A DNA stretch of 64,000 bases, taken from IMG/VR virus record IMGVR_UViG_3300033074_001537; one strand, 5' to 3'. Made by a program: the position numbers and the translations under genes. Origin of the DNA: an uncultured virus (IMG/VR IMGVR_UViG_3300033074_001537) (taxonomy: Duplodnaviria > Heunggongvirae > Uroviricota > Caudoviricetes). The notes beneath the pieces are model-generated. The model made no database searches, was not told the origin of the DNA, and was given only the letters and a program-made list of their open reading frames with translations. Shown here piece by piece: positions 19,258 to 49,092 of the stretch; positions within the stretch are counted from its first letter, which is position 1, and each line of letters opens with the position of its first letter.

Positions 19258-20586
19258 ATGGTCTGGAACGCGAAAAGCCCCAAGAACCTCGGGGCGAAGG
19301 AAAAGCTGACCGCAGCCAAGATCACGGTAGTTCATAAACTACCGTATCTGGCTCAGGCGGTCAGTGCGCTCGTGCTGCGCGAAGTGCCGCGCGGCACGCT
19401 CAATACTATGGCCGTGTCTCCCAACGGAGTGCTCCGTTGGGATGCGGCCGACCTCGACGAGCTGACCGTCGAACAGACGGCAGCCTCGCTCGTTCACGAG
19501 GTGTTTCACCTCTTGAACGAGCACCACCCCCGGCGCCATGCGTCGGGGATTCTCGACAGCGACGCGCCTCTGTGGAACGTCGCCGCGGACTGCGAGATTA
19601 ACGACAATCTCGCGGCTACGGGGGTCGACATGTTCAGCATGGTGACCCCGACGAGCATGGGTCAGCCCGATGGGCTGACCGCAGAGATGTACTACGCCGC
19701 TCTCAAAAAGAGCGGCCAGGGTACGCCGCAGCCCAAGCAAGGCGGCCAGAGCCAGGGCCAAGGCCAGAGTCAGCCGAAAGCCGGCAACGCCCCCAACAAG
19801 TGCGGCGGCAAGTGCGGCAGCGGCAAGTGCGGCGGTGGGGCCGGTGGCGAGCCGGCCGACGGGGAGGCCGGCGACAAGCCGGGCAGTGGTAGCGGCGCCG
19901 AGGGGCGTTCTGCGGGCGACATGAAAGCCGTGGCCGTCGCCACGGCAGCCGCAATGCAGGAAGCCGCAGCCAAACAGAAGGGGAGCGTACCCGGCGGCTG
20001 GGTGCGCTGGGCGGGCGACATGCTCGCGCCCCCCAAAGTGCGATGGCAGGACAAGCTGCGCGCGAAGGTGCGCAGCGCGGTCAACCATGCGGCCGGCATG
20101 GTTGATAAGACCTACAAACGTCCAAACCGCCGACAGGCGGGGCTCGGCTACGGGGCCGGCGCCCCCGTTCTCGCGGGCTGGCACGCGCCGCAGCCCCGCG
20201 TGATGGTCGCCCTCGACACGTCGGGGTCGATGGGTTCAGACGACTTCGAGCTCGCCATGAACGAGCTCGAAGGCATCCTCAAGGCGATGCCTGGGCGCGT
20301 CGTAGACTTCGTGGCGTGCGACGCCCAGGTGCACGCTGCGGTGCCCGTTCGCTCGTGGCGTGAGGCGAAAGCCTCGCTCCGCGGCGGCGGGGGTACATCC
20401 TTCGAGCCCGTGATGGAACACATCACGGGGCTACCGGCCGCAAAGCGGCCGCACGTTCTCGTCGTAGCCACCGATGGCTACGGCGACGACCCCCCGATCC
20501 CCCGCGACGTGCGGGTGATCTGGCTCGTCACGAGAGGCAACTACTGCTCTGCGAAGAGCGGAGAGCATGTCTACCTCGACGGGTGA
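19258..20586 (+). CDS. HExxH metallopeptidase-like domain fused to a VWA domain (DUF2201-type)
   Basis: HEVFH and WNVAADCEIN in the N-terminal domain; VWA MIDAS motifs DTSGS, GGGGT, TDG; typical MoxR partner. Confidence 0.9.
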   Translation: MVWNAKSPKNLGAKEKLTAAKITVVHKLPYLAQAVSALVLREVPRGTLNTMAVSPNGVLRWDAADLDELTVEQTAASLVHEVFHLLNEHHPRRHASGILDSDAPLWNVAADCEINDNLAATGVDMFSMVTPTSMGQPDGLTAEMYYAALKKSGQGTPQPKQGGQSQGQGQSQPKAGNAPNKCGGKCGSGKCGGGAGGEPADGEAGDKPGSGSGAEGRSAGDMKAVAVATAAAMQEAAAKQKGSVPGGWVRWAGDMLAPPKVRWQDKLRAKVRSAVNHAAGMVDKTYKRPNRRQAGLGYGAGAPVLAGWHAPQPRVMVALDTSGSMGSDDFELAMNELEGILKAMPGRVVDFVACDAQVHAAVPVRSWREAKASLRGGGGTSFEPVMEHITGLPAAKRPHVLVVATDGYGDDPPIPRDVRVIWLVTRGNYCSAKSGEHVYLDG

Positions 20587-21034
20587 TGTCACAGCACGCG
20601 TGCACTTGCTCGGCGTGCTGTACTCTTCGACGCACCGCACGCTCCCCTGTGCGTGCGTCGAAGAGTTTTCCATCACGGTGAGGCCCGGTGCGCCGCGCAT
20701 CCCCGTGCGGTACACGAGCTTCAACGCGCAGTGCCCGCTCGCGGGGCAAGACCACCGAAGCGGGTGGTTTTCCGTAGGGAGCGGGGCGAACCGCGGGTCA
20801 GCGCGCCGTGTTCTGAACGACACCGTGGGCTCGCTCGTGGTCGTGATGACTACGGAAATCTTCGTGGGCTGGTCCCACTTCATGCACGCGAGCAAGCGCA
20901 GCTCAAACTTCTACCTCGCGTTCACCAAGATGCTCCCCGGCATCTACGCAGATCGAATCAAAGCACCAACGAGGCGGGCGATCCGCGACGAACTCGACGC
21001 GCGGATCGACGCAGCATTAATAGCCTGTCTGTAA
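20567..21034 (+). CDS. Hypothetical protein (loose match to the C-terminal motif family)
   Basis: Overlaps the VWA gene end; ends DARIDAALIACL. Confidence 0.65.
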   Translation: MSTSTGDVTARVHLLGVLYSSTHRTLPCACVEEFSITVRPGAPRIPVRYTSFNAQCPLAGQDHRSGWFSVGSGANRGSARRVLNDTVGSLVVVMTTEIFVGWSHFMHASKRSSNFYLAFTKMLPGIYADRIKAPTRRAIRDELDARIDAALIACL

Positions 21035-21049
21035 GAAAAGAGGAATCAC

Positions 21050-21919
21050 ATGGAAAAGCTGACGATCGTAGACGGTGGGGCGACCACGGGCGTTGTGACC
21101 TACTGGCAGCTGGCGGGGCGCACGGAGCGCACCCGTCTGGAAGCGGCCTGGATGAAGGCCGGCCTGGACATGGCGGCGCTGCCGCCCGTCACTACGCCCC
21201 GCACGGCGCTCCAACGCGCGCTCGCAGAGTTTGCGGACAAAGATACGCTGGTCCGGCCGTCCGAGGATCCACACACCTTCGCGGTGCTCAAGCGGGAGAA
21301 GGACTCCCGAGGAAAGCCCGTCTTCGTCACGCAGTGGGAGGCGCGGCTGGCGTCTCCCGACACCGACGACCCCGTCTGCGTGCTCCCCGACGGGGCGGAT
21401 GTCTCCGAGGAAACCGCGGAGACGGTCGTGCTCGCGTTCCGCCGCGAGCTGCGCACGATCCACCACCACGACATCTCGTCGTGGCTGGTGGAGTGGGCTC
21501 GCCGCTGCCACGCCGTTTCGCTCCGAGACTCGGGCGGCTTCTACTACATCCCCAACACGCACGCGGCGACATGGCGTGCTGTCGGCGACGCGCTGGGCAG
21601 CGCGTCGCGATCGAAGGTCTATGAGATCGCTGCGATGGCTGGCGACAAGGCGGCGGAAGCCGTCCTCGACGCCCTCACGCGCGAAGTACGCACCGTCGTC
21701 GAGGGCATCGACGAGAAGCTGGGCGACGTAGGCGTCCGCGCCCTCAAGGGGCGCGAGCGCGAGCTCGCAGCCTACGAGGCCAAGGTGGCCTCGTTCGAGT
21801 CGGCCCTCGGGGTGAAGCTGGACGCGCTCCGCGGGCAGCTCACCGAGCTCGGTGGCCGTGTGGCTGTGGCGGTGATGGCCGCCGAAGCCAACACCGGGTT
21901 CAGCGGCCTGGGTCTGTAG
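21050..21919 (+). CDS. Hypothetical protein with C-terminal coiled coil
   Basis: AAGAGGA RBS; strongly GC3-biased codons; LRDSGGFYYIP. Confidence 0.8.
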   Translation: MEKLTIVDGGATTGVVTYWQLAGRTERTRLEAAWMKAGLDMAALPPVTTPRTALQRALAEFADKDTLVRPSEDPHTFAVLKREKDSRGKPVFVTQWEARLASPDTDDPVCVLPDGADVSEETAETVVLAFRRELRTIHHHDISSWLVEWARRCHAVSLRDSGGFYYIPNTHAATWRAVGDALGSASRSKVYEIAAMAGDKAAEAVLDALTREVRTVVEGIDEKLGDVGVRALKGRERELAAYEAKVASFESALGVKLDALRGQLTELGGRVAVAVMAAEANTGFSGLGL

Positions 21920-21922
21920 CAT

Positions 21923-21955
21923 CGGGGTGCCCTATGGCACCCCGGCTTCTCTTTT
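21923..21955 (+). terminator. Probable Rho-independent terminator
   Basis: cggggtgcc-ctat-ggcaccccg followed by a T-rich tract. Confidence 0.65.
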
Positions 21956-21992
21956 AGACTTCTGAATATCCAAGGAGAGCCTATGAAAGCCT

Positions 21993-22586
21993 ATGAAAGC
22001 GTGGACGTGGCGTGACTTAGAGAGCGGCGTGGTCTTCGACCCAACCGAGACAGGCTGGCTCCCCATGCAGCTAGCCGAACAATTTAATGCTACCAAGTGG
22101 GGCACAGTGCGCCGCGCGTACGATCGCATCCTGAACTCACCAGTCGGGGAGGGCTTGATGTTCGTGCAAACCCGTGGGTTCGCGTGCACTCGGCTGATGA
22201 CCGCGATGTACATGAATGAGGACGGCTGCAAGCGAGTTCTCAAGATGCAGCCCGACGACCTCGCGCGGTTTTATCAGACGAAGCCAGAGTGGTATCGAGC
22301 CTGCCGCACGGATGAGCCCTTGTGGGGGCACATCGTCGGCGCGCTGTACGGCGACACCTATGCGGATGTGGTCATGCGCCGCGTGCCGTGCATGGCGGGA
22401 ATGTACCGATCGGTACTCCCCATCGCGTGGCATACAAGGCTAACTGATCTCTACGCGCCCGATCGCACCACCCTGAGCGTGGTGTTCGCGTCGGTGTTTG
22501 GTCGAGCGAACCCGAGCCGCACACAGGTTGCGGAGTGGCTAGGTGCATCCTACGCCGCATGGAGCATGACCCGTGAAGTGGGATGA
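21993..22586 (+). CDS. Hypothetical protein (C-terminal motif family)
   Basis: AAGGAG upstream; 10-bp duplication agcctatgaa at the start; ends GASYAAWSMTREVG. Confidence 0.7.
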   Translation: MKAWTWRDLESGVVFDPTETGWLPMQLAEQFNATKWGTVRRAYDRILNSPVGEGLMFVQTRGFACTRLMTAMYMNEDGCKRVLKMQPDDLARFYQTKPEWYRACRTDEPLWGHIVGALYGDTYADVVMRRVPCMAGMYRSVLPIAWHTRLTDLYAPDRTTLSVVFASVFGRANPSRTQVAEWLGASYAAWSMTREVG

Positions 22587-23109
22587 GCTGAAAATCAACG
22601 GAGCAGTGGTAGTCGGGGAGAAGTACCTGAGCAGTGTATGCCCCGACCACTACGACTTTGGCTGGCGTCGGAACAACCGAATCGTCAAACCAACCGTAGA
22701 CTTCCGCGAAATCCAGATCATCACGGCGTTCGACTTCCCGCAAGAGCTGTCGGACGAAATCCTGCTGATGACGCCTGATGAGTTCGCGGAGTTTATCGCT
22801 GCCAAGCCGCGAATCAGGCTCCCCGATACAGATGAAGTGCTCGTCGATGGATTCCACGGAAGGTATGACATCTTCGCAGAGATCGTAACCTTCCGGCTAC
22901 GCACCTCGGGGTATGTGCTGCTCGCACTACACCCGCTCGGCGACCTCCCACTGACAGCCACCGGGGCGAGTGTCTGGCAGTACACGCCAGAGCAAGTGCG
23001 GGAGGCATGTTTGTTCTGGACGGGGAAGCCCGAACCGGGGCCGATGGAGCTGGAGAACGCCATGCGCGAGCGGTGGCACGTCGTGCGCGGCTTGTTGGTG
23101 GCGGAATGA
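22573..23109 (+). CDS. Hypothetical protein
   Basis: Overlapping ORF in the operon. Confidence 0.7.
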   Translation: MKWDELKINGAVVVGEKYLSSVCPDHYDFGWRRNNRIVKPTVDFREIQIITAFDFPQELSDEILLMTPDEFAEFIAAKPRIRLPDTDEVLVDGFHGRYDIFAEIVTFRLRTSGYVLLALHPLGDLPLTATGASVWQYTPEQVREACLFWTGKPEPGPMELENAMRERWHVVRGLLVAE

Positions 23110-23444
23110 AGAAACCGAGCCTTCACCTCCGTGCGTTCGCTGAGCTCAAGACAACAGACGTGGATGGGCTCGTCAAGTGCCTTGAGCCGAACATCCATCG
23201 TATGTCCCGCGTCATCCGTGCCAACAAGTACATCAACGACTTGCCTGCCGCGAACAACAACGGTTTGACCGTGCACCTCAGCATGTACGGGGCGCTTATC
23301 TACAAAATCGTAGACGAGCCGCTTGCCCGTCAGTGGGTTGCTGAGTTTCACAACATCGACAAGCAAGAGGTGGTAGACTCCTGGGAGTACCTGTACTGGT
23401 ACTACGATGAAATCCTACCCGTGATCCAAGCAATCACACAGTGA
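23106..23444 (+). CDS. Hypothetical protein (C-terminal motif family)
   Basis: ATGA overlap at 23106 (MKKPSL); ends EILPVIQAITQ. Confidence 0.7.
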   Translation: MKKPSLHLRAFAELKTTDVDGLVKCLEPNIHRMSRVIRANKYINDLPAANNNGLTVHLSMYGALIYKIVDEPLARQWVAEFHNIDKQEVVDSWEYLYWYYDEILPVIQAITQ

Positions 23445-23451
23445 GCGTGAA

Positions 23452-23976
23452 GTGAACCAAACAATCGTGGACGTGCTCAACGAAGCCGCACGACGGTACA
23501 ACCGCGTGTGGTGGGCAAACGCAATGGAGCTCACTCAAGCCGCGTGGCCCGACGTGCTCGTGGCCAGCCGTCGGTTCGACCCGGCCCGCGGCGACTACCG
23601 CGGTCTGCTGTACCACGTCGCCGTGCGGGCAATGGCGCGGTACCTGCGCTCGATGAGTGCCCCGGTGAGCGGGGACGTGTGGCGCAAGGGGAGGCTCGAC
23701 GGGATTCTTAGAGAACCCGTCGAAGACGATTCTTTAACACTTGACGCCGCGCCCGAGCGGGTCGAATGTGTCGCGCGGGTTCGCGCCCGCGTCGAGGAAG
23801 TCCTCGGAGAAGAGGCGCCGTTCGCAGTGCGTTTGCTAACGCGCGAGAGCACGGCACAAGAGATTGCCGACGAGGCGGGTGTATCCACCAGTCTCGTATA
23901 CAAGTGGACGATGGTGTGGCGTCGTGTTCTCAAGCACGACGCCGAGCTCCGTCTGCTGTGGGAGGAGTCCGACTGA
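23452..23976 (+). CDS. Small sigma70-family (ECF-like) sigma factor
   Basis: Region 2-like ELTQAAW...RRFDPARG; region 4 HTH TAQEIADEAGVSTSLV. Confidence 0.75.
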   Translation: MNQTIVDVLNEAARRYNRVWWANAMELTQAAWPDVLVASRRFDPARGDYRGLLYHVAVRAMARYLRSMSAPVSGDVWRKGRLDGILREPVEDDSLTLDAAPERVECVARVRARVEEVLGEEAPFAVRLLTRESTAQEIADEAGVSTSLVYKWTMVWRRVLKHDAELRLLWEESD

Positions 23977-31053: not shown

Positions 31054-31062
31054 CCCGTACCG

Positions 31063-31103
31063 AGGCGCGGCTGGGTTTCTGCCCCGGCCGCGCCTTTCTT
31101 TTT
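31063..31103 (+). terminator. Rho-independent terminator
   Basis: aggcgcggc...gccgcgcct followed by ttcttttt. Confidence 0.75.
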
Positions 31104-31107
31104 AGAC

Positions 31108-31602
31108 ATGAGAACATTCATCCACCCGCGGTTTTCCATAATACATATGTCTGACGAAAGCCGCCTCAACGCATCGCACGAGCACTCGCTGTTGAGCACG
31201 GGCTACCCTCTCGGATCGTGCCAAGTGTGCAACCGCTCGTACAACGTCATGCGCGTTACGTTCAGTGCGCGAGCTCGTGGTGCTGCGCGATGGTCGTTCG
31301 ACTTGTGCCCGACTTGCGAACCGTCGGACGTGTGGGTTGACCGCGAGCAGTATTCTCGCTGCGAGAAAACGGTCCCGTTCAAGCGTGTGGAAACCTACAA
31401 GAGCGGGGGCATTCGCGTAGTGCTTTTCCACCGGCACTCCTCGTTCGTGATGGAGTCGATGCTCACGCACAACAGCTACATGAACCGTAATCTGCCGATC
31501 CCGAAGGAAATGCAGGCTCCGACGATCCTGTACACCGGGGTCGCACGGAAAGCACACGAGTTCATCGAGGCGTTGTTCGTTATGATGGGAATGGCCTTGT
31601 GA
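31108..31602 (+). CDS. CxxC-containing hypothetical protein (C-terminal motif family)
   Basis: CQVC...CPTC; ends EALFVMMGMAL; start uncertain. Confidence 0.65.
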   Translation: MRTFIHPRFSIIHMSDESRLNASHEHSLLSTGYPLGSCQVCNRSYNVMRVTFSARARGAARWSFDLCPTCEPSDVWVDREQYSRCEKTVPFKRVETYKSGGIRVVLFHRHSSFVMESMLTHNSYMNRNLPIPKEMQAPTILYTGVARKAHEFIEALFVMMGMAL

Positions 31603-32069
31603 GGTGCGCTGAATACGCGCCACGAATCGGCATAGCGCGAATGCTAGATAAGCGTTGCGCTAAGTGCGGTGCGGCGGACGCGTTGGAAATGTACCCTCTC
31701 AGCCAAAACTTGCTGCCGCCGGCTTGCTGCTTGTGCTGGCTGCACAGCATCGCGCGGGTAGAATATTCCAAACAGACACCCGACCGCGCACACGGTGCTT
31801 GGTCACACACCCGTGAATCGTCTGGCTTTCTTTTCAAAGAGCCGGTGATCTACGCAAACTCGGTGATGCCCAACAAGATGCTAACGACGGTAGCAACACT
31901 GCGTGTGTCGTGCGTCTCGTTCGTCGAAATCAACATGCACTGCGGCGACGTGCGAGGGGGGAGCGGGCTGGTGGGTCGGTTTCGCCGTACCGTCGTGTAC
32001 TCACGGAGCACAAAAAACGCCTTGGCGTTCTACGATGCGCTCCAAACGTCCGAGATAATCAGCAGTTGA
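31599..32069 (+). CDS. CxxC-containing hypothetical protein (C-terminal motif family)
   Basis: CAKC...CCLC; ends DALQTSEIISS. Confidence 0.65.
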   Translation: MRCAEYAPRIGIARMLDKRCAKCGAADALEMYPLSQNLLPPACCLCWLHSIARVEYSKQTPDRAHGAWSHTRESSGFLFKEPVIYANSVMPNKMLTTVATLRVSCVSFVEINMHCGDVRGGSGLVGRFRRTVVYSRSTKNALAFYDALQTSEIISS

Positions 32070-32644: not shown

Positions 32645-33198
32645 CATACGCCGGCTACGGGGTGTGGCCGTTCAACCGCCCCGACCGCGAACCGATCGCC
32701 GTGTTTCACGGCGACAACGCCCAGGAGCTCGCACGGAACTACGCCAACCTCGTCGGTGGAGCGCTGGTGAGCCCCGTGACCTGCATCACGTCGAACCGTA
32801 GTGACGACGTGTTGCGGAGCGTCTCCAACTACGAAGAAGTCATCGCGACCTTGGAGCGCAAGGTCGAAGACGTGGAGCACAATCTGGAGCTGGAGCGCCT
32901 CGGCCGCGAAGACACGCGTAGGCAGAATCTAGCGGCGCTGGCAGCCTATTCCAAACAAGTCGCAGCGCTCTTGCGCGCGGTCAACGCTGTGCCTTCGCAG
33001 GGGTTCTCGCACCAACACATCGTAGACAGCGTGGTCGAGCGCAGGTTCTACGACGAGAAGTACGTTCACGAGCTGGAAGTCGCCCTGGGGCTAGAGGGCT
33101 TCCCCGAAGTCGCCATCGAGCGTCTCCGCAGACGGTGCATCATCGCGGGAGGCAACTACGCAATTCGTCCGCACGATGGAAAGGTCGCGACACCGTGA
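32635..33198 (+). CDS. Hypothetical coiled-coil protein
   Basis: AAGGAG RBS before GTG 32635. Confidence 0.65.
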
Positions 33199-34022
33199 GC
33201 AACAAGCTGCTGCCCCCGGAAAACCTGCTGCGCAACCGGCCGAAGAAGGGTACGACGAACATCAAGCGCATCGGTAAGCAGCGGTTGCGCCACGAGATGA
33301 ACCTCGCGAACCTGCGCTTGATCGGCGTAGACAAGGCGCGCCCCAAGACGCGTGCCGACTGTCTGCAAGGGCCGAATGCGCAGCGCCCGTGCCCGTTCGT
33401 GTCGTGCAAGCACCACCTGTACCTCGACGTGAATCAGCGCGTGGGCTCCATCAAGCTGAATTTCAGCGACCTCGACGTAGGGATGCTGTGGGAGACATGC
33501 TCGCTCGACGTGGCCGACCGCAACGGCGCGTCGCTCGACGAGATCGCGAAGTACATGAACCTCGGGCGTGAGCGCGTCCGTCAGATCGAAGAGGCGGCGC
33601 TCGCGAAGCTGAAAGATGGTGTGGCCGCGTTGGGAATCAGCGCGAGCGATATCACGCACACGTTCAGCGCGTGGGATACCGCGACCTCGCCCGTCACCTC
33701 CGAGGTAGACGGCATCGACGACAGCGAATACAGGGCCATCTCGCGCCAAGTAATCCGAGACTCGGGCGACTTGCTCAAGGTGCCGGTGTTCATGCGCGGC
33801 GACATGGCGCTGCTCAGCAGTGAGAGGGGGCGCAAGTTCGTCTTGGCCCGCGCGACGAAGAAGCTCGATCGGTACAAGCGGGGGCTGGCCACCGCGCAGG
33901 GGTATCTTGCGAAGTGCGTCGCCAAGAACCGCAGCACCGTGATCGCGCAGCGCTCGATCCACCGATACAAGCAGCTCATGGCCCTGACGGCGCGCCGGAT
34001 CGAAGCGATCCAGAACTTGTAA
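33195..34022 (+). CDS. Sigma70 region-4 HTH protein with a Cys/His N-terminal domain
   Basis: RPKTRADC...[16 protein letters not shown]...[20 protein letters not shown]. Confidence 0.85.
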
Positions 34023-34050
34023 GAACTTCGTGTAAGAACGAGGGTGGAAA

Positions 34051-34353: not shown

Positions 34354-34359
34354 AAAGAA

Positions 34360-35214
34360 ATGCTGTCTATTGCTCAGTACCTCGCCGGGATCAAGCGCTG
34401 CGGAAACACGCCCAAGTCGTTCCGCAACTGGTTGGACTACGCCACGCAGGAAGACGAAAGCGACGGTGTGCCAAAGCACAAGTTCGACGCGTGCGGTGGG
34501 GGGTTTCTCAACCCGCTGTCTCAACAGCCCAAAACAACCATCATCGCGGTGTACAAATACTGCCGAGCGACCCGCAAGAGCGGGGTGCCTGCGGCTCCGC
34601 GTAACGACAACTTCGTGATCGGGTTCGGTGCGCTGGACGCGCCCCACTGGTCGCACGGCGCGCTCAGCAAGTGGTTCGTTGGCATGGAGTGGTTTAGCCA
34701 ACTCGGCTTGAGCCTGCGTGGGGTTGGGGCGTCCCCGATGCTGGCGGGGATGCTCAACACCATCCCGCAGGCGATTCCCGGTGCTTGGTGGGCGGCGTGC
34801 CCGCATGGGTTCACCGTGTCCACTCCCGGCAACAACGTGGTGGAGCTGCGCCCGTACCCCGCGGGCAGCGACGTGCACTTCCTCGCGTACTACGGCGACC
34901 AGACGGCCGACGTAGCGCCGGAGGCGGACCTCGGGCAGATCATCTTCGATCTCGTCACGAAGCCGCGTACGCAGAAGCCGATGACCACGCCGCGAGAGCC
35001 CGAGCAGCCTACGGTTGCCACGGCGTCCCCGTCGGTGGCTTACGCGCGTTTCCGAGACATGGAGCGGGAGATGGACGAGCTTCGCTTGACCGTGAAGAAG
35101 CTCACGGGCGGCGCGGAGATCGCCAAGTACGTTCTGCAACAGATCAACAACGGGTCTGCCGTACCCCCGGCGCTCGTGAACTACGCCATCGCCCGTCTCG
35201 GGGGTGGCGAGTGA
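34360..35214 (+). CDS. Hypothetical protein
   Basis: AGGAGG RBS. Confidence 0.75.
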   Translation: MLSIAQYLAGIKRCGNTPKSFRNWLDYATQEDESDGVPKHKFDACGGGFLNPLSQQPKTTIIAVYKYCRATRKSGVPAAPRNDNFVIGFGALDAPHWSHGALSKWFVGMEWFSQLGLSLRGVGASPMLAGMLNTIPQAIPGAWWAACPHGFTVSTPGNNVVELRPYPAGSDVHFLAYYGDQTADVAPEADLGQIIFDLVTKPRTQKPMTTPREPEQPTVATASPSVAYARFRDMEREMDELRLTVKKLTGGAEIAKYVLQQINNGSAVPPALVNYAIARLGGGE

Positions 35215-35648
35215 ACGGGGCAGAGCTTCTCGTGGCGCTCTTGTCGCTGTGGCGGCACATGCGGTACCGCGAGTGCATCGAAGCGCACCGCGCTCAGATC
35301 GTCGCCGTCGCAGAGGCGGGTGAACGTGAGTACGGCGTGCCCGCCGGCTTGTCGCTGGTGACGGGCTTCTTCGAGACACACCTGGGCTGCGCGCACGGTG
35401 AGGGTGGCAATTGGGGTGCGCCCATCGACCGCTTTCACCGGCACACCGCAGGTACGCCCATGCACGCCGTGCGTGCGATGGCTGCAAGCTACCGAGTGTG
35501 CGGCACCTGGGTTGGTGCGGTGGGTCGCTTTCGTTCGGGCTTGTGCCACCCGACGAACCCCCTGCATCGTGTGGCGGTCACCATGCGCGTGCGAACTACA
35601 CGCATCATCTACCAGCAGGCGGGCCTACCCGTCCCCGAGGGCTTGTGA
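35211..35648 (+). CDS. Putative lysozyme-like/SLT transglycosylase
   Basis: EYGVPAGLSLVTGFFET resembles the SLT catalytic Glu motif; hydrophobic N-terminus. Confidence 0.5.
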   Translation: MNGAELLVALLSLWRHMRYRECIEAHRAQIVAVAEAGEREYGVPAGLSLVTGFFETHLGCAHGEGGNWGAPIDRFHRHTAGTPMHAVRAMAASYRVCGTWVGAVGRFRSGLCHPTNPLHRVAVTMRVRTTRIIYQQAGLPVPEGL

Positions 35649-38314
35649 AGCATCTCCCACTCTACCCAAACGGTACGCCCTCCCCAACGGACAACCGGGT
35701 GCCTGCACCGAGCTCGGGGCTCGGATGTACCGCGTGCGAGCTCTCGTCGGGGGCCAAGTACGCACCTCTGGCCAACTACGTTCTCGGTCGGCGCATGAGC
35801 GGCGGAGCCGAGAAGGGCGCACCTTCCGTAGCTGTGGTGTTCGAGGCGCCGACTCGCGGTGAGGACGCAGGCGGTGACCCGTTTAGTAGCGCCACCTACC
35901 GTACGCTGGTGGAGATCATCCGTGCGTCGAGCACTCACCGTGTCGTGCCGATGTACGCCGTGCACTGCGCCCCTGGTAACGCCGAGGTAACTGCGGAGCA
36001 CGTCACAGCTTGCCGAGGGCATCTTCACGAGACGATCGCCCAGGGTGCCGCCGCCGTGCATCTCATCATCGCGGTTGGCCCTCTGGCGCACATCGCGGTG
36101 CTCGGTCGGAAAGTCGCGGCAGACCTCGTGCCCAACACGGTGAGCGTGATCGACGCGTTTTGGGCCAAGCGCGTTCCCGTCATCTGCCTGCCCGCGGCGA
36201 GCGTGCTGCGCAAAGACCCGGCGCGGACGCGGTGGCGCATCGCGGACGCGATCGAAACGGCACAGAACGTGGCTAGGTCAATCCATCACGGCCGGCTCGC
36301 GACAACCTTCGTCCAGTCGTACGAAGACCATCTGCGCGTGCTCGGAGTTCTTAAAAAGGCAGACGCACTTGTGTTCGACACGGAGACGGTCGGCCGGCTG
36401 CATACTCCGACGTTCTACGTCGAGGAGCTGTCGTTCGCTGTGAACGACAGTAACGCGGTCACCTACGGCCGCGATGTGCTGGGCGATCGACGCGTTCGTA
36501 GTGACTTGAAGGCGCTGTTGGAGAACCACGCCGTCTGCAAAGTCGGCCACAACATCAAGTACGACCTACTCGCGCTGCGGACGTGGCTCAACGTGCACTG
36601 CTTCGGGCACCCGCTTCGCGACACGCGCCTCGACCACAAGCTGCTGCACGCAGACTCGGTGGGTGACCTCGCGACCTGCGCAGAGATGGTCGGCTTCGGC
36701 GGCCACAAGGAAGAGGCGCGGGCGGCGATCGACGTGGTCAAGCACGACCTGAACGCGCTCGCTTCGGCGCCGAAGCGAGCTCTGACCAAGAGCGGCAAGC
36801 CGCGGAAGCCGCCAACGCTCAAGTACCTCGACGAGTCCGAGGTGGACCCCGAGCATCTCGAAGACATCCAGCAGGGCGCCGACACCGAAGCGTACGCGCA
36901 GGCGTACATTCCGTGGCGTATCCGTGCGCGATACAACGCGCTCGACGCGATGAGCACCTACTGGCTCGACAAGCTCAACGCAGACCGCTTCGACATGTCC
37001 AACCGCGAGTTGTCGGAGGGGCGTATGGCGGTCGCGAACGAGATCGTGCGGCCTGCTATCTCCGCGCTGGTCGAGATGGAGGCGACGGGTATCCGTGTGG
37101 ACACCGCGGCGCTAGACATCTTCACACAGTTCTTGAAGTCCGAAATCGCCGTAGTGCAGTCTCGGCTCAACCACTACCCCGGCGTGAACTTCGCGAGTCC
37201 GAAGCAGCTCGCGGAGCTCCTCTACGACAAGCTCGGGCTGCCTGTGCTCGCAGAAACACCCTCGGGGGGCCGCGCGACCGGCGAAGAGGTGTTGCTCGAA
37301 CTCGCGGAGAAGACCAAGCACCCGCTTCCAAAAGACGTGCTCGCTTTCCGCGAGCTCGAAAAGCTGCTCGGCACCTACGCCGAGGGCATGAAGAAGCACA
37401 TCCGTGTGGGGCCCAACGGGCCGCGCATCCATCCGAGCACGCTGCTCGACGGGGCTGGTACCGGCAGGTTGTCCAGCCAGAACCCCAACATGCAGAACGT
37501 GCCGAGCCCCGACCGAGATACGCCTGGGCGGCCGGCGTTCGGCAAGATGGCTCGTGACATCTTCGTCGCAGACCCAGGCTGCGTACTCCTCGAAGTGGAC
37601 ATGAGCCAGCAAGAGCTGCGCATCGCTGGGATGCTCTCGGGCGACCCGGTGATCCTCGAATGTTATAAGAACAACGAGGATATTCACCGCGGCACGGCGG
37701 CGATTGTGTACGGCGTCCCGCTGGCCGCAGTAACGAAGGAGCAGCGGGCACGCTCGAAGACCGTGACCTTCGGGCTGGTGTACGGCAAGACCGACCGCGG
37801 GCTCGCCAAGCAGCTCAACATCACCGTGGCGGAAGCCGTGCGCATTCGCAAAGCGGTGCTCGGGCGGTTCAAGAAACTCGCAGAGTTCTGCGAGCGGTGT
37901 CTGGCGTCGGCCCGCAGGGACGGTGGCGCGTATACATGGTGGAACGGTCACGAGCGGGCGCGGTGGCGCCCGCTGCCTGCGATCAACGACATGACCGACG
38001 AAGGCTTCGGCGCGCGCATCAACGCGGAGAACGCCGCGGTGAACACCCCGGTCCAGGGGCTCGCTGCGGACATCGTCACCGCCAGCTTGTTTCCGATCGT
38101 TGCCCGCTTCCGCAAGGACAACCTCGACGCGCAGCTGGTGAACACCGTGCATGACTCGGTGATGATCAACGTGCGCGAAGACCAGCTACCGCTCGCCGCC
38201 AAGATCATGCGCGAAGTGATGCTCGGGCACAACACGAACGGGTTTCCGCTGGGCGTTGACATGAAGGTGGGCAAGAGCTGGGGCAGCATGACCGAGTACC
38301 ACCTACCGGGGTGA
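35645..38314 (+). CDS. Family A DNA polymerase with an N-terminal UDG-like domain and 3'-5' exonuclease
   Basis: CTAC...EAP..ED..GDPF...HCAP (UDG-like); FDTET, HNIKYD, YNALD (exonuclease); TGRLSSQNPN, DMSQQELR, KTVTFGLVYG, VHDS (polymerase). Confidence 0.95.
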   Translation: MKHLPLYPNGTPSPTDNRVPAPSSGLGCTACELSSGAKYAPLANYVLGRRMSGGAEKGAPSVAVVFEAPTRGEDAGGDPFSSATYRTLVEIIRASSTHRVVPMYAVHCAPGNAEVTAEHVTACRGHLHETIAQGAAAVHLIIAVGPLAHIAVLGRKVAADLVPNTVSVIDAFWAKRVPVICLPAASVLRKDPARTRWRIADAIETAQNVARSIHHGRLATTFVQSYEDHLRVLGVLKKADALVFDTETVGRLHTPTFYVEELSFAVNDSNAVTYGRDVLGDRRVRSDLKALLENHAVCKVGHNIKYDLLALRTWLNVHCFGHPLRDTRLDHKLLHADSVGDLATCAEMVGFGGHKEEARAAIDVVKHDLNALASAPKRALTKSGKPRKPPTLKYLDESEVDPEHLEDIQQGADTEAYAQAYIPWRIRARYNALDAMSTYWLDKLNADRFDMSNRELSEGRMAVANEIVRPAISALVEMEATGIRVDTAALDIFTQFLKSEIAVVQSRLNHYPGVNFASPKQLAELLYDKLGLPVLAETPSGGRATGEEVLLELAEKTKHPLPKDVLAFRELEKLLGTYAEGMKKHIRVGPNGPRIHPSTLLDGAGTGRLSSQNPNMQNVPSPDRDTPGRPAFGKMARDIFVADPGCVLLEVDMSQQELRIAGMLSGDPVILECYKNNEDIHRGTAAIVYGVPLAAVTKEQRARSKTVTFGLVYGKTDRGLAKQLNITVAEAVRIRKAVLGRFKKLAEFCERCLASARRDGGAYTWWNGHERARWRPLPAINDMTDEGFGARINAENAAVNTPVQGLAADIVTASLFPIVARFRKDNLDAQLVNTVHDSVMINVREDQLPLAAKIMREVMLGHNTNGFPLGVDMKVGKSWGSMTEYHLPG

Positions 38315-40843: not shown

Positions 40844-41997
40844 GAACCGCCTTCATCGCAGACGTTCACATCGGCAACCACAGCGCACCGCAGCCTCCGC
40901 ACAGTCTCGTCGCCCACACCAAGTCGCCGCTGTTGAACATGCGAGCGCAAGAGGTGCTGGGTGTGCTGAGCGCCGCGGTCGGGGTCGCGCAATACCACAA
41001 AGCCACTGAGCTCGTCGTGTGCGGTGACCTGTTCGACGTGCCGTCGCCCTCGGCACCGTTTTACATGGCTGCACGCGCAGCATTCAGCACGTTCATGGGC
41101 GACGTGGTCTTGTTGGCGGGCAACCACGAGATCGCGTCGTCGCAAGCAACCGACAGCCCGGCGGCAGTGCTCGCGAAGATGCTGCCTCGGTGTCGGTACG
41201 CCCCGCCTGGGCAGACGGTAGACACCCCGCGAGGTGTGCGGTGCCTCGGGTTCCCCGCGTTGGCAACGCAGAGCGAAACCCTCGCCGCCGTGAAGGGCGC
41301 CGCGGCGGCCCGCGGGAACGTGTACATCCTGGCTACGCACTTGGGAGTCATCACCGACGGCACACCGCCGTGGAGCCGTGACTCTGCGGAGGCGCTCTCC
41401 GCGAGTGCGTTCCGCGAAGTGCTCAAGGGGTGGGGCGGCGTCGTGTTGGGAAACTGGCACGACGCCGAGAGCATCGAAGGCTCGCCGTGGGTCGAGCAGG
41501 TTGGCGCGCTGTGTCCAACGGGGTTCGACAACGCCAACGACCTGCTGAACTACGGCCAGTTGCTCGTCGTTGACCACGAAGAGGGTACGCGGTCGCGGCA
41601 CTTCGTACCCGCGCCGCGGTTCGTCCGCGTGGACGTACCGAGCGGCGCACCTGTGCCCGACTTCGCGGCGGCGCTCGTCGGCGTACTCGCGCAGAAAGCC
41701 GGCCGGTACAACCTCGTGACCAACCTGTACGTCAGGCTGCGGTGTGTCGCTGGCGACCAGCGCCGCGTACGGGACGAAGCAGAGAAGTACCGGCCGGCGC
41801 TCGAAGCACTCACCCGCGGTGTGGTGCTCGTCGTGGACCCAACCATGCCGAAAGACGTGAGCGTCAAGTCGGTGTCGGTCACGCAAGCGGAAGAAGACGA
41901 CCACCTGTTTGACTACGTCGTGCAGGCCGACATCCCGACGAACGTGCCGCGCAAGCGCTTGATGAAAACCTTGAAAGAGTTGGTGAAGCGTGAGTAA
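40840..41997 (+). CDS. sbcD: SbcD/Mre11-like metallophosphoesterase nuclease
   Basis: ADVH, GDLFD, GNHE, THLG, GNWH. Confidence 0.88.
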   Translation: MRTAFIADVHIGNHSAPQPPHSLVAHTKSPLLNMRAQEVLGVLSAAVGVAQYHKATELVVCGDLFDVPSPSAPFYMAARAAFSTFMGDVVLLAGNHEIASSQATDSPAAVLAKMLPRCRYAPPGQTVDTPRGVRCLGFPALATQSETLAAVKGAAAARGNVYILATHLGVITDGTPPWSRDSAEALSASAFREVLKGWGGVVLGNWHDAESIEGSPWVEQVGALCPTGFDNANDLLNYGQLLVVDHEEGTRSRHFVPAPRFVRVDVPSGAPVPDFAAALVGVLAQKAGRYNLVTNLYVRLRCVAGDQRRVRDEAEKYRPALEALTRGVVLVVDPTMPKDVSVKSVSVTQAEEDDHLFDYVVQADIPTNVPRKRLMKTLKELVKRE

Positions 41998-42388
41998 CGA
42001 TCAACGCTTCGCGCAGATGCGTGAAGCACTCGAAAAGCTGGCAGCGCACGACGCCAAATTGGCGAAGCCCGCAGCGACGTTCAAGCCACAGCGCAGGTCG
42101 GTGTTCACGCCGGGGTCGAACACTCCGACGGACCCGGCGTGGGCTGAGATGAACACAACCGAGGAGATGATCGACTTCATGTTCGGGGCAGCCACCGCCA
42201 ACCTCGCGGCGCTCTCCGGATGGGAGGTGACCTTCGTTGACTCAGCCAAGAACCAGCACAACCGCAAGATGGCGGCAGGGTTCAAGGCCACCAACACCCT
42301 GAGCGGGCGCCAGCTCGTCGTGCTGTACCGCATCGTGCAAAAGCTGGCGTCCACAACCGTGAAGGCGATGACCAATGAAGATCAGTGA
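41990..42388 (+). CDS. Hypothetical protein (C-terminal motif family)
   Basis: Lies between sbcD and sbcC; ends LASTTVKAMTNEDQ. Confidence 0.7.
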   Translation: MSNDQRFAQMREALEKLAAHDAKLAKPAATFKPQRRSVFTPGSNTPTDPAWAEMNTTEEMIDFMFGAATANLAALSGWEVTFVDSAKNQHNRKMAAGFKATNTLSGRQLVVLYRIVQKLASTTVKAMTNEDQ

Positions 42389-46387: not shown

Positions 46388-46870
46388 ATGAGCGAGCTGG
46401 TCGTAGAACCGATCCCTGTCGTGAGCCTAGAGAGCTTGTCTCCCACATCCGTCAGCGTGGGCCCCAGCAGCTTCCTGTGCGCGGTGTGCAGGGTGACACA
46501 GCGTGAAATGTACAACAACGGGCTGTTCATTATCGCACCATGTATCGGGGACAACGGTGTGGTTCGGCGAGCGGTGAACCACCCGGTACTTTGGCTTTGT
46601 CACCAATGCGGGTCGTCGGCCCCGAGGATGGTCAGGGCCGATTGCTGGTTTATAACAACCACGCCACAAGCCCACCACCCTTTCATCGTGCGTGTGTCGA
46701 TGCACCTCGCCAGTCAAAAGACCAAAGACGGGCGGGATATTGCCCTGCTGGCACGGCGTGCGATGGACTTCGAGGGTCCGTTCACATGGCGGCTCGTTGG
46801 CCCGCACGAAGCGGCCATCGCCTACTACGAGGCTGTCGCGACGATGGTGGTGATGACACATGGAGATTGA
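46388..46870 (+). CDS. CxxC hypothetical protein (C-terminal motif family)
   Basis: CAVC...CHQC; ends EAVATMVVMTHGD. Confidence 0.7.
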   Translation: MSELVVEPIPVVSLESLSPTSVSVGPSSFLCAVCRVTQREMYNNGLFIIAPCIGDNGVVRRAVNHPVLWLCHQCGSSAPRMVRADCWFITTTPQAHHPFIVRVSMHLASQKTKDGRDIALLARRAMDFEGPFTWRLVGPHEAAIAYYEAVATMVVMTHGD

Positions 46871-47459
46871 ATACTTTAATGAAAGAGTGGTGATGAGCGG
46901 ATTCGGCGACGCAGCCCGCTTTTACGAAGGTGAGTCGCGGAAAAGCTGCATGATCTGCCGCAAGAACACTGAGAATACATCGACAACAAGAATGCTGTTC
47001 CTGCGCCGCATCGGTTACGAAGTCGTGGACTTCGGCCCCCTGTGTGGAGCCTGCCTCTCGGGCACGAGAAGCGTGAACCTCCACTGCGGCGCGCGACCGG
47101 CGAATACAGCTCTCACCGGCCCCACCGCGGTGCTCGAATTCACCGTGCGCAAAACATTCAGAGTCATTGCGCGCATCGAGTACATGGGGGTCTTCAATTC
47201 TTATAAGCAAGCGCTCGGAGTGCGGCACTACGGGAAGAAGCCGAACTCGATGCTGATGGGCATGTGGGTTCTCACGGACCTCAAGGTGTACACGCGCGAG
47301 CCGGAAGGGCACCTTGCCCTCGTGCAGCAGGTTGACCTCTACCCGTACGGTACCGTGGGGCGGCGAGGGGAAATGGAAACCCACGCGCGGAACATCGCTG
47401 AGGAGTTTGCCGATGAGTACGCGAAAGCCGTTGTCGATGACATCACCAGGACCGATTAA
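46860..47459 (+). CDS. CxxC hypothetical protein (C-terminal motif family)
   Basis: CMIC...CGAC; ends YAKAVVDDITRTD. Confidence 0.7.
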   Translation: MEIEYFNERVVMSGFGDAARFYEGESRKSCMICRKNTENTSTTRMLFLRRIGYEVVDFGPLCGACLSGTRSVNLHCGARPANTALTGPTAVLEFTVRKTFRVIARIEYMGVFNSYKQALGVRHYGKKPNSMLMGMWVLTDLKVYTREPEGHLALVQQVDLYPYGTVGRRGEMETHARNIAEEFADEYAKAVVDDITRTD

Positions 47460-47895
47460 ATTTCTCGACTTCGCCGTGGACTGCCAGTCGGGCAGGCAGC
47501 ACGCAGAAAGCCCCGATGGCCCACTCATGTCAGGGGCGCCGATCTGCGGCGAAGACGGGAAGCACACTTGCTACCTACCCTGTCTGCGGCGCACCGAGCT
47601 CTACTACCCCGCCTGCCGGCGGCAGGGTGGGAAGTGCGGTGGGCCTGAGTATCACGTCACCATTCGTATAAAAGTGGGTGCGCTATACGCGGTGTACCGC
47701 GTGACCAACACGATGCGCCGCCGCTGCTGGTACGTCTATGTGACCGTGCACGTCGGGGGAAAGAGCAACAGTTGGGGGATCGTCGAAGACGCCCCCGTGC
47801 GCACGGCGCAGCAAATAAAAGACCTCGGGTTTCACGAAATTGTCGTGAGGATGGTCAGCGAACCCGTGGTCGCAGCCATGACGAAGGAAAGCTAA
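47413..47895 (+). CDS. Cys-rich hypothetical protein (C-terminal motif family)
   Basis: GAGGAG before ATG 47413; ends VSEPVVAAMTKES. Confidence 0.65.
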   Translation: MSTRKPLSMTSPGPIKFLDFAVDCQSGRQHAESPDGPLMSGAPICGEDGKHTCYLPCLRRTELYYPACRRQGGKCGGPEYHVTIRIKVGALYAVYRVTNTMRRRCWYVYVTVHVGGKSNSWGIVEDAPVRTAQQIKDLGFHEIVVRMVSEPVVAAMTKES

Positions 47896-48345
47896 ATGGA
47901 CACGTGCGTAGACGAAGCGCTGAATCGCGGCGATCAGTGCACCCGCGAGCCGCGGCTGCTGTTCCACAACCCGGTGGGGTTGTGCTCTACCGAACCCCTT
48001 GGGAACGAGCCGTGCCGTGCGGTTTCGTACACCGTCAGGATGTCGTACAAAGGCATTACGATCGTGGCCCAGCTCTCGCTCAACGCGGCGGACAGGAACA
48101 ACATGCTCGTACCGCGATGGCGCTGTCAGCAACCACACATGGGGTCCACGAAAGAGTTTAGCGACGCGTGGTTGCGTCTGCATAAGAACGGCTACGACAA
48201 GAAAATGCAGTTGTACCCGCGGTGGCCTGTGCGCGCGGCGTCGAAAGAATTTCTTGAGCAGCGTCTCAGAGATAGTTTGAAAGAGCACGTCGATCGTATC
48301 TTCGCGGCAGACACCGCGCTGCGAATGACGGAGCACACGCCGTGA
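47896..48345 (+). CDS. Hypothetical protein (C-terminal motif family)
   Basis: AAGGA RBS; ends FAADTALRMTEHTP. Confidence 0.7.
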   Translation: MDTCVDEALNRGDQCTREPRLLFHNPVGLCSTEPLGNEPCRAVSYTVRMSYKGITIVAQLSLNAADRNNMLVPRWRCQQPHMGSTKEFSDAWLRLHKNGYDKKMQLYPRWPVRAASKEFLEQRLRDSLKEHVDRIFAADTALRMTEHTP

Positions 48346-48731
48346 CACCCACACCCGGTAATTCGGTCTGCGCGCGCATCGGTGCGTTCGGGTGGAGACG
48401 CAACGTGTGCCCCCCGCATTCACGGGGGCAATGCCGCCGCGCGTGCATAGAGGTGAGCACGCGAATGGGTGGCTTCCAAGCTACAGCATACTTCACGCGT
48501 GACGCGACTCGCGGCGTGTGGGTGTTCGCACGCGACCATTATGGGGACGCCCGCGTGTGGGGTGTATGGGTGCGCGATGAGCTTGCGGTCAAGTACCGCG
48601 ATGCCACGACATTCACCGTGGACACCGCCCGCACATTCGTGGAGCTAGACAATGCAAAAGAATACCTGCGAGAGCGCATCGACGCCGTGTGGGCCGGTAT
48701 CACCGCGGCTGCTATGGCGTGCACCGACTGA
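48342..48731 (+). CDS. Hypothetical protein (C-terminal motif family)
   Basis: GTGA overlap; ends WAGITAAAMACTD. Confidence 0.7.
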   Translation: MTPTPGNSVCARIGAFGWRRNVCPPHSRGQCRRACIEVSTRMGGFQATAYFTRDATRGVWVFARDHYGDARVWGVWVRDELAVKYRDATTFTVDTARTFVELDNAKEYLRERIDAVWAGITAAAMACTD

Positions 48732-49092
48732 CAGCGCAAAGCCGCCAGAAGTCTGCAAGACCTGCGGGAGCGACCCCTGGTATCCGAATCTACCCACCGA
48801 TCGGTGCGTATACCCGATGGTGTATCACATGACGATCCCCGCACTCGACTCCCGTGTTGGTATGACTCTGCGCTTCGCTCGTATGGGCGGTCGGTGGAGA
48901 TGCGACCTCTGGATTTCTTGGGACGCAGCGTTTCGCACTACGATGCACCGCGACACCATGCGGCAGATTGAAAAAGCCCGAGTGATCCCCGCGGAAACCA
49001 CGACCGATAGCTGGTTGGAGGGGCTCGACTGGGCGCTCACCCACGCCGAGTGGGTAGAGGCTTGCTTCATAAGCAGCCTTTTGGCTAAATAA
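48652..49092 (+). CDS. Hypothetical protein (C-terminal motif family), start uncertain
   Basis: CKTC; ends EACFISSLLAK. Confidence 0.6.
   Translation: MQKNTCESASTPCGPVSPRLLWRAPTDSAKPPEVCKTCGSDPWYPNLPTDRCVYPMVYHMTIPALDSRVGMTLRFARMGGRWRCDLWISWDAAFRTTMHRDTMRQIEKARVIPAETTTDSWLEGLDWALTHAEWVEACFISSLLAK

Follow-up and report, generated by a model that had tools for sequence, protein, structure and literature searches.

A shared C-terminal helix among small, fast-evolving cysteine-rich proteins of an uncultured phage

Adaptors which combine a variable body with a constant C-terminal box make up the F-box, SOCS-box and poxvirus ankyrin/PRANC families. The internal proteins of phage T4 carry an N-terminal capsid targeting sequence, which the prohead protease cleaves away, and C-terminal degrons of the ssrA type, tail anchors and membrane-targeting amphipathic helices of the MinD type are further examples of short functional elements at the C-terminus. 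In Bacillus phage G, a zinc-ribbon protein has undergone a lineage-specific expansion to approximately 35 copies, and the authors of an overview of jumbo phages suggest that the copies are transcription factors or DNA-binding proteins (PMC7824862).

The DNA analysed here, referred to as the window, is a stretch of 64,000 nucleotides. It comes from a high-GC phage, one relative of which is an 84.7-kb record that bears terminal repeats. The initial annotation had drawn attention to some twelve small orphan proteins ending in a common helix. All 12 peptides quoted there were confirmed as C-termini of plus-strand open reading frames (112-199 aa) which begin where it had placed them, with the motif 0-4 residues from the stop, and the four separate sites were borne out (20567-23444, 31108-32069, 41990-42388 and 46388-49092). 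Genes are named below by their first nucleotide (Table 1).

Like the expansion in phage G, the window would hold many diverged copies of a small protein with cysteine pairs; unlike it, the set here is defined by a constant helix at the C-terminus rather than a zinc ribbon, and the phage is far smaller than that jumbo phage. No relation in sequence was found, as two members used as tblastn queries matched nothing at E<=1 in 50,697 phage records. The likeness to the F-box, SOCS-box and PRANC families lies in the pairing, across a gene family, of a body that diversifies with a C-terminal element that does not, which the contrast in rates described below fits. The difference is that no Pfam box domain was found, the constant element being a single helix with a putative docking role. 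With the T4 capsid targeting sequence the proteins have in common a short terminal peptide borne by dissimilar, fast-evolving phage proteins, although that sequence is N-terminal and cleaved, whereas the element here is C-terminal and helical. An ssrA-like degron was ruled against, as the motif is followed by 0-4 residues of varying identity and the extreme C-terminus is not conserved. A tail anchor or membrane-targeting helix was also rejected, the longest uncharged run of 3-14 residues being too short for a membrane span (about 18 needed), and the last 24 residues, at a net charge between -5 and +1, are neutral to acidic, unlike a cationic amphipathic helix.

Table 1. Tagged genes and neighbouring hairpins in the window. 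Ranks are from the leave-one-out comparison with 64 non-members.
Feature	Position	Strand	Description
Probable member	20567..21034	+	155 aa; Cys/His motif; loose tag at very end; non-strict, above all non-members
Terminator-like hairpin	21922..21945	+	just upstream of 21993 cluster; 10-bp stem, then T run
Doubtful carrier	21993..22586	+	197 aa; separate paralogue subfamily with 22573-23109; rank 14 of 64
Doubtful carrier	23106..23444	+	112 aa; 1 Cys; non-strict; rank 7 of 64
Terminator-like hairpin	31062..31096	+	just upstream of 31108 cluster; 14-bp stem, then T run
Family member	31108..31602	+	164 aa; two CxxC pairs; tag 31567-31596; strict match; P0005; above all non-members
Family member	31599..32069	+	156 aa (126 aa in public call); tag 32034-32063; strict match; rank 11 (weak)
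Doubtful carrier	41990..42388	+	132 aa; no Cys; strict match; one non-member scores above
Family member	46388..46870	+	160 aa; two CxxC pairs; tag 46829-46858, 3 residues before stop; strict match
Family member	46860..47459	+	199 aa; tag 47418-47447; strict match; rank 9 of 64 (weak)
Family member	47413..47895	+	160 aa; 7 Cys (4.4%); tag 47854-47883 with Ser replacing Ala; non-strict
Family member	47896..48345	+	149 aa; tag 48301-48330; strict match; above all non-members
Family member	48342..48731	+	129 aa; tag 48690-48719; strict match; above all non-members
Family member	48652..49092	+	146 aa if start is ATG 48652; tag 49057-49086; strict match; last gene of unit
Hairpin	49094..49126		directly after 48652; between convergent early (+) and late (-) genes

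Counted back from its cap, the motif forms one conserved stripe on the helix, with Ala at position -8, one of Thr/Val/Ile at -5, one of Met/Ile/Leu at -1 and Thr/Ala/Ser as the cap at 0, and usually a hydrophobic or aromatic residue upstream of the stripe. The residues after it differ in number (0-4) and identity, and this variable tail simply reflects the position of the next gene's start. A strict pattern was defined as A-x-x-[TVI]-x-x-x-[MIL]-[TAS], 0-4 residues before the stop, and matched eight (31108, 31599, 41990, 46388, 46860, 47896, 48342 and 48652) of the 76 complete genes which codon-usage-based calling gave in the window. Inside the proteins this pattern occurs 20 times in 18,023 positions, a rate from which 0.42 matches are expected, and 2000 shuffles of each last 30 residues gave 0.35 with a highest count of 4; the Poisson P for eight carriers among 76 genes is ~2e-8. 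Enrichment over shuffled C-termini, the check which the initial annotation had proposed, was thus found. At least one fixed position is missed in 47413, 21993, 23106 and 20567, four of the 12. As the pattern had been defined after viewing the data, it was cross-validated with a leave-one-out 18-column matrix comparing the 12 members with 64 non-members. Five of the 12 (46388, 47896, 48342, 31108 and 20567) scored above all 64 non-members (P ~6e-7), 41990 was beaten by one, and 47413 and 48652 by three each, while 23106, 46860, 31599 and 21993 were inseparable from this background. The C-terminal motif is real.

The list of about twelve carriers held up for eight or nine, leaving 41990, 21993 and 23106 doubtful. 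In the window the family comprises 31108, 31599, 46388, 46860, 47413, 47896, 48342 and 48652, and probably 20567. Start positions are uncertain for 31108 (the public call starts 13 codons downstream), 31599, 48342 and 48652, the last of which overlaps the preceding gene by 80 nt if ATG 48652 is its start. Directly upstream of 20567 lies a pair encoding a MoxR ATPase and a VWA/metallopeptidase-like protein, an arrangement conserved in a divergent relative (G003), whose orthologue of 20567 shares 30% identity and has retained both the Cys/His motif and a terminal helix. The doubtful carrier 41990 is situated between SbcD-like and SbcC-like genes and is well conserved (63% identical in G003), and 21993 is linked to 22573 by BLASTP (E 6.8e-4). 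The 21993 subfamily is present in G003 as two tandem copies, 41% identical, and the gene of this subfamily at G003 7265-7870 is a strict match. Chance is the best account of the tag in 41990, 21993 and 23106, because about 0.4 strict matches are expected by chance and these three took leave-one-out places 1, 14 and 7 of 64, respectively.

The robust members have an architecture in common. Cysteine makes up 2.5-5.1% of the nine members against 1.27% overall, and a C-x(1-4)-C pair is present in eight of the nine (the exception being 47896), with two such pairs each in 46388, 46860, 31108 and 31599; the N-terminal CxxC pairs noted at the outset in several carriers were thus correct, and they probably bind zinc, judging from the sequence. 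Among small proteins, 16 have a Cys content of 2.5% or more, and these include seven of the eight strict carriers, whereas the 30 others include one (Fisher P 0.0014). The predicted order of domains is Cys pairs near the N-terminus, a strand-rich body and the final helix. AlphaFold2 models, both of low confidence, place five strands before a helix at residues 93-127 in 48342 (pLDDT 49.5), and strands and two further helices before a C-terminal helix at 140-158 in 46388 (pLDDT 47.1). With such models, a Foldseek search of the PDB yielded nothing at E<=0.001. No Pfam family was matched by the tagged proteins at E<=0.01, and neither a box domain nor anything else relevant at E<=1; no zinc-ribbon family exceeded its curated cut-off, 46388 giving sub-threshold hits only (Zn_ribbon_10, E 0.022; zf-C2HC_3, E 0.04) and the other tagged proteins giving not even these. 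The observation that recognisable enzymes lack the tag was confirmed, in that no Pfam-annotated protein is among the eight strict carriers.

Outside the helix the proteins have little detectable similarity. An all-against-all BLASTP of 19 proteins gave the 21993-22573 pair as its sole link and none among core members, and of the 91 pairs of ortholog groups aligned with hhalign, three reached P<0.02, against a chance expectation of about 1.8; after removal of the helix no pair did so. Leave-one-out profile HMMs on the last 32 residues alone gave P 6e-7, and those lacking the last 25 residues a weak combined P of 0.0024, driven by 47896, 48342 and 31108; with full-length HMMs single left-out members were not convincingly recovered. 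The description of the carriers as dissimilar thus stands at the level of sequence (BLASTP, hhalign), though not for the architecture of the robust members.

Comparison with a sister phage revealed different rates in the two parts of these genes. In the tagged genes dN/dS was 0.53 for the body and 0.10 for the last 22 codons, the latter resting on 4 changes only, and in other genes it was 0.12 and 0.10, respectively. The third codon position accounted for 0.42 of the differences in tagged genes versus 0.66 in others (P 6e-14). With 20567 left out, the last 22 codons of tagged genes had 9 differences where 25.2 were expected (P 1.4e-4), compared with 117 and 143 in other genes, and none of the 37 nucleotide differences in 31599 falls in this region. 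The tail of 20567 was not conserved against the sister phage, with 18 of its 106 differences there and about 15 expected. In four more distant ortholog pairs the tail was only slightly better kept, 14 of 100 of the last 25 residues having changed against 90 of 465 in the body (P 0.26); P0002, the orthologue of 47896, shares 77% identity with it and differs at only 2 of the last 25 residues. The earlier view of a variable body joined to a constant C-terminal helix is supported by the dN/dS contrast, with small counts in the tail. Where the window and the sister phage (G2) differ by 3.2 kb, the zinc-module half of one member has been joined in frame to the body and helix of a second. The resulting chimera of two sister-phage genes is 46860, its N-terminal part corresponding to G2 33193-33433 and its C-terminal part to G2 36630-37008. 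The family thus shows changes in copy number and exchange of parts.

The motif recurs in G003 (56-66% identical), where the strict pattern is found in four of 38 genes and 0.24-0.29 would be expected; three are positional counterparts of window members, and one of the four is probably due to chance. Further copies of the family are present in relatives. A gene found only in the sister phage, G2 33193-33633, scored 7.2 bits, a value reached by ~0.3-1% of 3,298 internal pseudo-termini. An exhaustive profile search found 10 proteins, all members or close orthologues, with no relatives beyond this phage lineage among 1.84 billion representatives, and the tagged family thus appears to be confined to it.

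Three rival accounts of the motif were weighed first. The residues could be a by-product of ribosome-binding sites, overlapping starts or another DNA or RNA signal at gene junctions, and the next start codon indeed lies 2-3 nt past the tag in four of the 11 carriers which have a downstream gene, with purine-rich, Shine-Dalgarno-like words within variable tag positions. Translational coupling, of the ATGA type or through a ribosome-binding site, nevertheless fails as an explanation, because codons vary and the spacing to the next start varies (-67 to +19 nt from the tag end) or, for 48652, there is only a hairpin downstream. At the fixed positions Ala is encoded in four ways, and Thr, Val and Ile each by several codons, the same codon occurs at 56 of 152 aligned identical residues where codon usage predicts 63.9, and mean nucleotide identity in the tag regions is 35%. 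This alternative, named in advance as one that could undo the observation, is hardly credible, and the motif acts at the protein level. Chance combined with post hoc fitting of a pattern to the Ala-, Thr-, Val- and Met-rich C-termini of a high-GC phage is highly improbable. The pattern was indeed written with the data in view, four of the 12 do not conform to it, and cross-validation was unable to separate four; for the core set, however, chance is contradicted by the composition-preserving shuffles and the leave-one-out ranking, and the motif reappears in sequences outside the original observation. It is also very unlikely that some tagged frames are non-genic, so that the similarity would be a property of an unused frame. 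Codon-usage scores are low (9-14) for 46388, 48652 and 31599, and changes relative to the sister phage fall on the codon positions in nearly equal numbers, yet the frames are open at the same length in orthologues 77-90% identical (P0002, P0008, P0010 and P0011), the genes abut or overlap in one direction in an operon-like manner, and a third-position excess is present though weak.

Two further readings give the helix a role as a docking element. The proposal of a portable docking or targeting tag holds that unrelated proteins each gained the same helix, to be read by one machine of the phage or the host. Candidates for it would be the MoxR-VWA pair nearby, the packaging apparatus, a protease or a chaperone. 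It draws on the findings that the helix alone is significantly common to the carriers, that it stays constant while bodies change, that the 46860 chimera demonstrates in-frame exchange of halves to be possible, and that proteins built differently (41990, and the 21993 subfamily with a G003 copy among it) likewise finish in a tag-like helix. The Cys-rich build of one architecture in seven of the eight strict carriers weakens it, however. The diverged family is the simpler reading, because the carriers of other architecture are those which chance explains, and we regard a portable tag as unlikely. Similarly doubtful is an adaptor array, in which fast-evolving heads would seize host proteins and the constant helix would deliver them to a common phage or host apparatus, with the MoxR ATPase and VWA/metallopeptidase-like pair as a candidate for the latter.

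On balance, we favour a multigene family specific to this lineage, whose members diversify rapidly while their C-terminal helix stays constant; we hold this reading to be somewhat probable. The copies would have arisen from one ancestor by common descent, their bodies diverging past recognition while purifying selection, as seen between the window and the sister phage, would maintain the helix. Members of 129-199 aa would end in an amphipathic helix of ~20-35 residues and may serve as accessory host-directed proteins in takeover or counter-defence, with the variable body addressing different targets and the constant helix providing a common interface. Whether the helix closes the protein's own fold or zinc module, or instead binds sister copies or one common partner, stands at roughly even odds.

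Small orphan phage genes are abundant and their sequences give no handle, and here the selected end-helix groups about nine of them. A constant part set against a fast-changing one is what proteins engaged in an arms race against their host would be expected to show. If the helices have a common partner, the target machinery of the whole set could be reached through that one partner, and if the adaptor array were true, it would bring F-box/PRANC logic to a bacteriophage. If, instead, the helix merely closes the fold, these genes would be an ordinary lineage-specific gene family.

About nine small, Cys-rich proteins end in a motif that is under selection at the protein level and is predicted to be helical. 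The initial annotation had listed twelve carriers of this tag, A-x-x-[TVI]-x-x-x-[MIL]-[TAS], and all twelve peptide strings were found at the ends of + strand ORFs starting at the coordinates by which the genes are named here, 0-4 residues before the stop. Gene calling relied on a codon-usage script of our own in place of a standard gene finder and gave 76 complete genes for the window, 107 for the sister phage G002 and 38 for G003, a divergent relative. The strict pattern, at most four residues from the stop, was present in 8 of the 76 window genes (31108, 31599, 41990, 46388, 46860, 47896, 48342 and 48652), while its internal frequency predicted 0.42 and shuffled tails predicted 0.35 (maximum 4 in 2000 shuffles), which bears out the enrichment over shuffled C-termini that had been named as a check. 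Each of the four other listed proteins missed at least one fixed position. As the pattern had been fitted to the data, it was cross-validated by leaving each listed protein in turn out of an 18-column matrix and ranking it against 64 non-members. In this analysis 46388, 47896, 48342, 31108 and 20567 scored above all 64 non-members, and five first places out of twelve correspond to a P of about 6e-7. One non-member ranked above 41990 and three above each of 47413 and 48652; 23106, 46860, 31599 and 21993 were not separable (ranks 7-14).

The C-terminal motif is a real feature, and sequences that were not seen when it was proposed agree with it. In G003 there were strict matches in 4 of 38 genes versus 0.24-0.29 expected; three correspond in position to members in the window, and the fourth, the counterpart of 21050, is probably due to chance. 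G003 gene 16444-16869 scored 14.2 bits with the window matrix, and only 0.09% of 3,298 internal pseudo-termini reached 10 bits. Gene 33193-33633, present in G002 only, scored 7.2 bits, and P0008, its orthologue, has a version of the motif that, read by eye, fits the residue pattern and is followed by five residues.

The initial annotation had itself named overlapping start or RBS coupling as the alternative that might explain the tag. The variable tail of 0-4 residues does simply reflect how far a gene runs into the next one or how closely it comes up to it. The distance from the end of the tag to the next start codon, however, ranges from 67 nt inside the next gene to 19 nt upstream, and the last member is followed by a hairpin only, with no gene downstream, which argues against such coupling. 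Any nucleotide signal as the cause of the tag was ruled out by this variable spacing, together with the variety of codons (four at the fixed Ala; GTG, GTT, ACG, ACC and ATA at the Thr/Val/Ile position) and the finding that equal residues in two tags shared a codon in 56 of 152 cases, where codon usage predicts 63.9. At the nucleotide level, tag regions compared in pairs were on average 35% identical. On tail residues, charge and uncharged runs, the tags were rejected as degrons, as tail anchors and as cationic helices that bind membranes.

Of the 16 small proteins whose Cys content is 2.5% or more (genome mean 1.27%), seven are strict carriers; the eighth strict carrier, the Cys-free 41990, is the only one among the other 30 small proteins (Fisher P 0.0014). 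Two C-x(1-4)-C pairs apiece are present in 46388, 46860, 31108 and 31599, and one pair with further Cys in 47413, 48342, 48652 and 20567; 47896 has five Cys without such a pair. Eight to nine of the twelve proposed carriers were retained. The remaining three, 41990, 21993 and 23106, are best left out of the family, because about 0.4 strict chance matches are expected and their ranks were 1, 14 and 7, respectively. 41990 is well conserved and lies between the SbcD-like and SbcC-like genes, 23106 has one Cys, and 21993 groups with 22573 and two tandem G003 genes in a separate paralogue subfamily. The ends of the G003 members of this subfamily resemble the tag, with one strict match, which makes the exclusion tentative.

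The 64-kb window is phage DNA over its whole length, with a GC content of 60-70%, lowest around 22-24 kb and 46-48 kb, where it falls to 0.60-0.62. Its - strand flanks carry genes for a portal, a D12-class methyltransferase and structural proteins as well as one large Hint/intein-bearing gene, and the + strand from ~13 to 49 kb encodes MoxR-like and VWA/DUF2201 genes, two sigma-like genes, helicases, a primase-like gene, PolA with a UDG-like N-terminus, a gp32-like protein, RecA, and SbcD-like, SbcC-like, ParB-like and RusA-like genes. G002 is a complete viral record of 84,736 bp with direct terminal repeats and 74-99% nucleotide identity to the window in aligned blocks and tagged genes; G003 is a 31-kb fragment with 56-66% protein identity. 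The window spans the terminal repeat of G002 and thus shows the genome in permuted or joined form. No close relative was found among 50,697 phage records, a collection from which the window's own record may be missing, and scans of viral and metagenome contigs anchored on the SbcC-like protein gave only near-identical copies and the one divergent fragment, so comparative depth is small. With two terminator-like hairpins upstream of tagged clusters and a third hairpin closing the last array, the clusters have the look of distinct accessory cassettes set among core modules.

Coordinates of features in the window and its relatives (window positions unless a locus is named)
Feature	Position	Strand	Observation
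Large gene adjoining portal	9363-12023	-	Hint and intein-splicing matches, hence probably an intein-bearing terminase-like gene
Terminal repeat region	12866-13549		12866-13197 matches last 332 bases of G002; 13129-13549 matches first 421
9-nt word [C/T/G]TTTTAGAC	15173-15181, 21951-21959, 31099-31107	+	Intergenic, after terminator-like hairpins; last two copies just before tagged clusters; 5 matches versus 3.25 expected over whole window, not enriched
Cassette with 20567	18005-21919	+	MoxR-like ATPase, VWA/DUF2201 metallopeptidase-like protein (PHROGs family label 'HNH endonuclease' looks like a mislabel), 20567, 289-aa protein (weak DUF6744 match, E 0.063); order kept in G003 (L012:2609-6573)
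Best two terminator-like hairpins	21922-21945, 31062-31096	+	Directly upstream of 21993 and 31108 clusters
Third hairpin	49094-49126		Closes 46388-49092 array
Counterpart of 21993 in G002	L007:8317-8910		Indels, 16 gap positions; stops upstream of last ~143 codons (one frame tried); may be truncated or start later
Two separate sigma-like genes	23452-23976, 33195-34022	+	One matches sigma-70 region 2 only, the other region 4 only
tRNA-Ser(TGA), ARAGORN, 73 nt	34676-34748	+	Within well-scoring predicted gene 34360-35214; shorter than expected of a tRNA-Ser and may not be genuine
Family A DNA polymerase	35411-38314	+	UDG-superfamily match in N-terminal part; fusion uncertain, as our gene caller separated 35211-35648 as a distinct ORF
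Region of G002 with the extra 3.2 kb	L008:13193-17008 (G002 33193-37008)		Between window ~47082 and 47099
Start of 48652	48652-48731	+	With ATG 48652 as true start, first 26 codons overlap helix-coding end of 48342 in another frame; next in-frame start would lose the Cys pair

Besides two small ORFs, the extra DNA of G002 contains one dNTP-pyrophosphohydrolase-like and one MazG-like gene. Relative to G002, a deletion in the window fuses two family members in frame to give 46860: its zinc-module half is that of G002 33193-33633, its body and helix are those of G002 36466-37008, and the two are joined at a short run of identical bases. The unfused state is probably the older, as a third phage (the source of P0008) retains an unfused 33193-like gene.

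Rates of evolution were compared between the window and G002, with 11 tagged genes aligned over their full length and 46860 left out because it is a chimera. Third-codon positions accounted for 0.42 of the differences in tagged genes and 0.66 in 52 other genes (P 6e-14). In the last 22 codons, 27 differences were observed versus 40.2 expected in tagged genes and 117 versus 143 in the others; without 20567, which displayed no tail conservation between window and G002, the tagged genes had 9 versus 25.2 expected (P 1.4e-4). For gapless genes the dN/dS of the body was 0.53 in seven tagged genes (46 non-synonymous and 26 synonymous changes) and 0.12 in the others, so that member bodies have four to five times the value of other phage genes; for the last 22 codons it was 0.10 in both, the tagged value coming from one and three changes. 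The direction of the contrast is clear, although the tail estimate is of four changes only, and these rates support the proposed combination of a constant helix with a variable body. Across four more distant ortholog pairs, 14 of 100 residues were changed in the last 25 versus 90 of 465 in the body, a lower share that is not significant (P 0.26), with strong tail conservation in two pairs and none in the other two.

The core members are as dissimilar as the initial annotation had stated, there being no BLASTP link among them. With hhalign, three of 91 ortholog-group pairs had P<0.02 versus ~1.8 expected; two of the three align helix to helix, in register, none survived removal of the helix, and the comparison lent homology no support. 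When profile HMMs built with one member left out at a time were set against 300 shuffles of the protein left out, the combined P was 3e-4 for whole proteins, 0.0024 after the last 25 residues had been trimmed and 6e-7 when the last 32 alone were used, which suggests a faint signal outside the helix and a helix that carries most of it. AlphaFold2 models built with paralogue alignments were of low confidence, and secondary structure alone was taken from them, with caution: five strands followed by a helix (93-127) in 48342 (pLDDT 49.5), and in 46388 (pLDDT 47.1) several strands, two helices (38-44, 118-125) and, as the best-scored part, helix 140-158 at the end. Foldseek found no match in the PDB at E<=0.001. 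Complex prediction with two copies of 48342 scored 0.00 with the partner fold uncertain, and speaks neither for nor against self-association. A common build of the core members is thus evident; they may also share one fold and one ancestor.

Searches of Pfam, PHROGs and PDB sequences with the tagged proteins gave nothing above threshold, and the ESM Atlas gave no informative neighbours or stored models for two members. A word-based search with 47896 returned its own cluster and one 77% relative only. A profile search run exhaustively over 1.84 billion representatives recovered ten proteins, all members or close orthologues, and did not recover 48652. The DNA of the array had no match in the 50,697 phage records, from which records of the window's own genome may be missing, and tblastn with two members none at E<=1. 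Our literature searches found nothing on this orphan family, which is new, though we claim no wider absence from print; the nearest printed parallel found was a roughly 35-copy zinc-ribbon expansion in Bacillus phage G (PMC7824862). In logic the family may be likened to adaptor families, with their variable body and constant box, and to the T4 capsid targeting sequence, but it did not qualify as a member of either kind.

The tag presents a stripe of conserved small and beta-branched residues, 3-4 apart, which fits tight packing against something invariant. This may be the zinc module of the same protein, another copy of the family or one partner shared by all; the proposed docking role of the helix is one candidate. 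The Cys-rich proteins are probably a single diverged family of accessory, host-directed proteins, of which the helix would be the constant interface. What emerges is a new family with a design of constant helix and variable body that is backed by the rates at which the two parts evolve.
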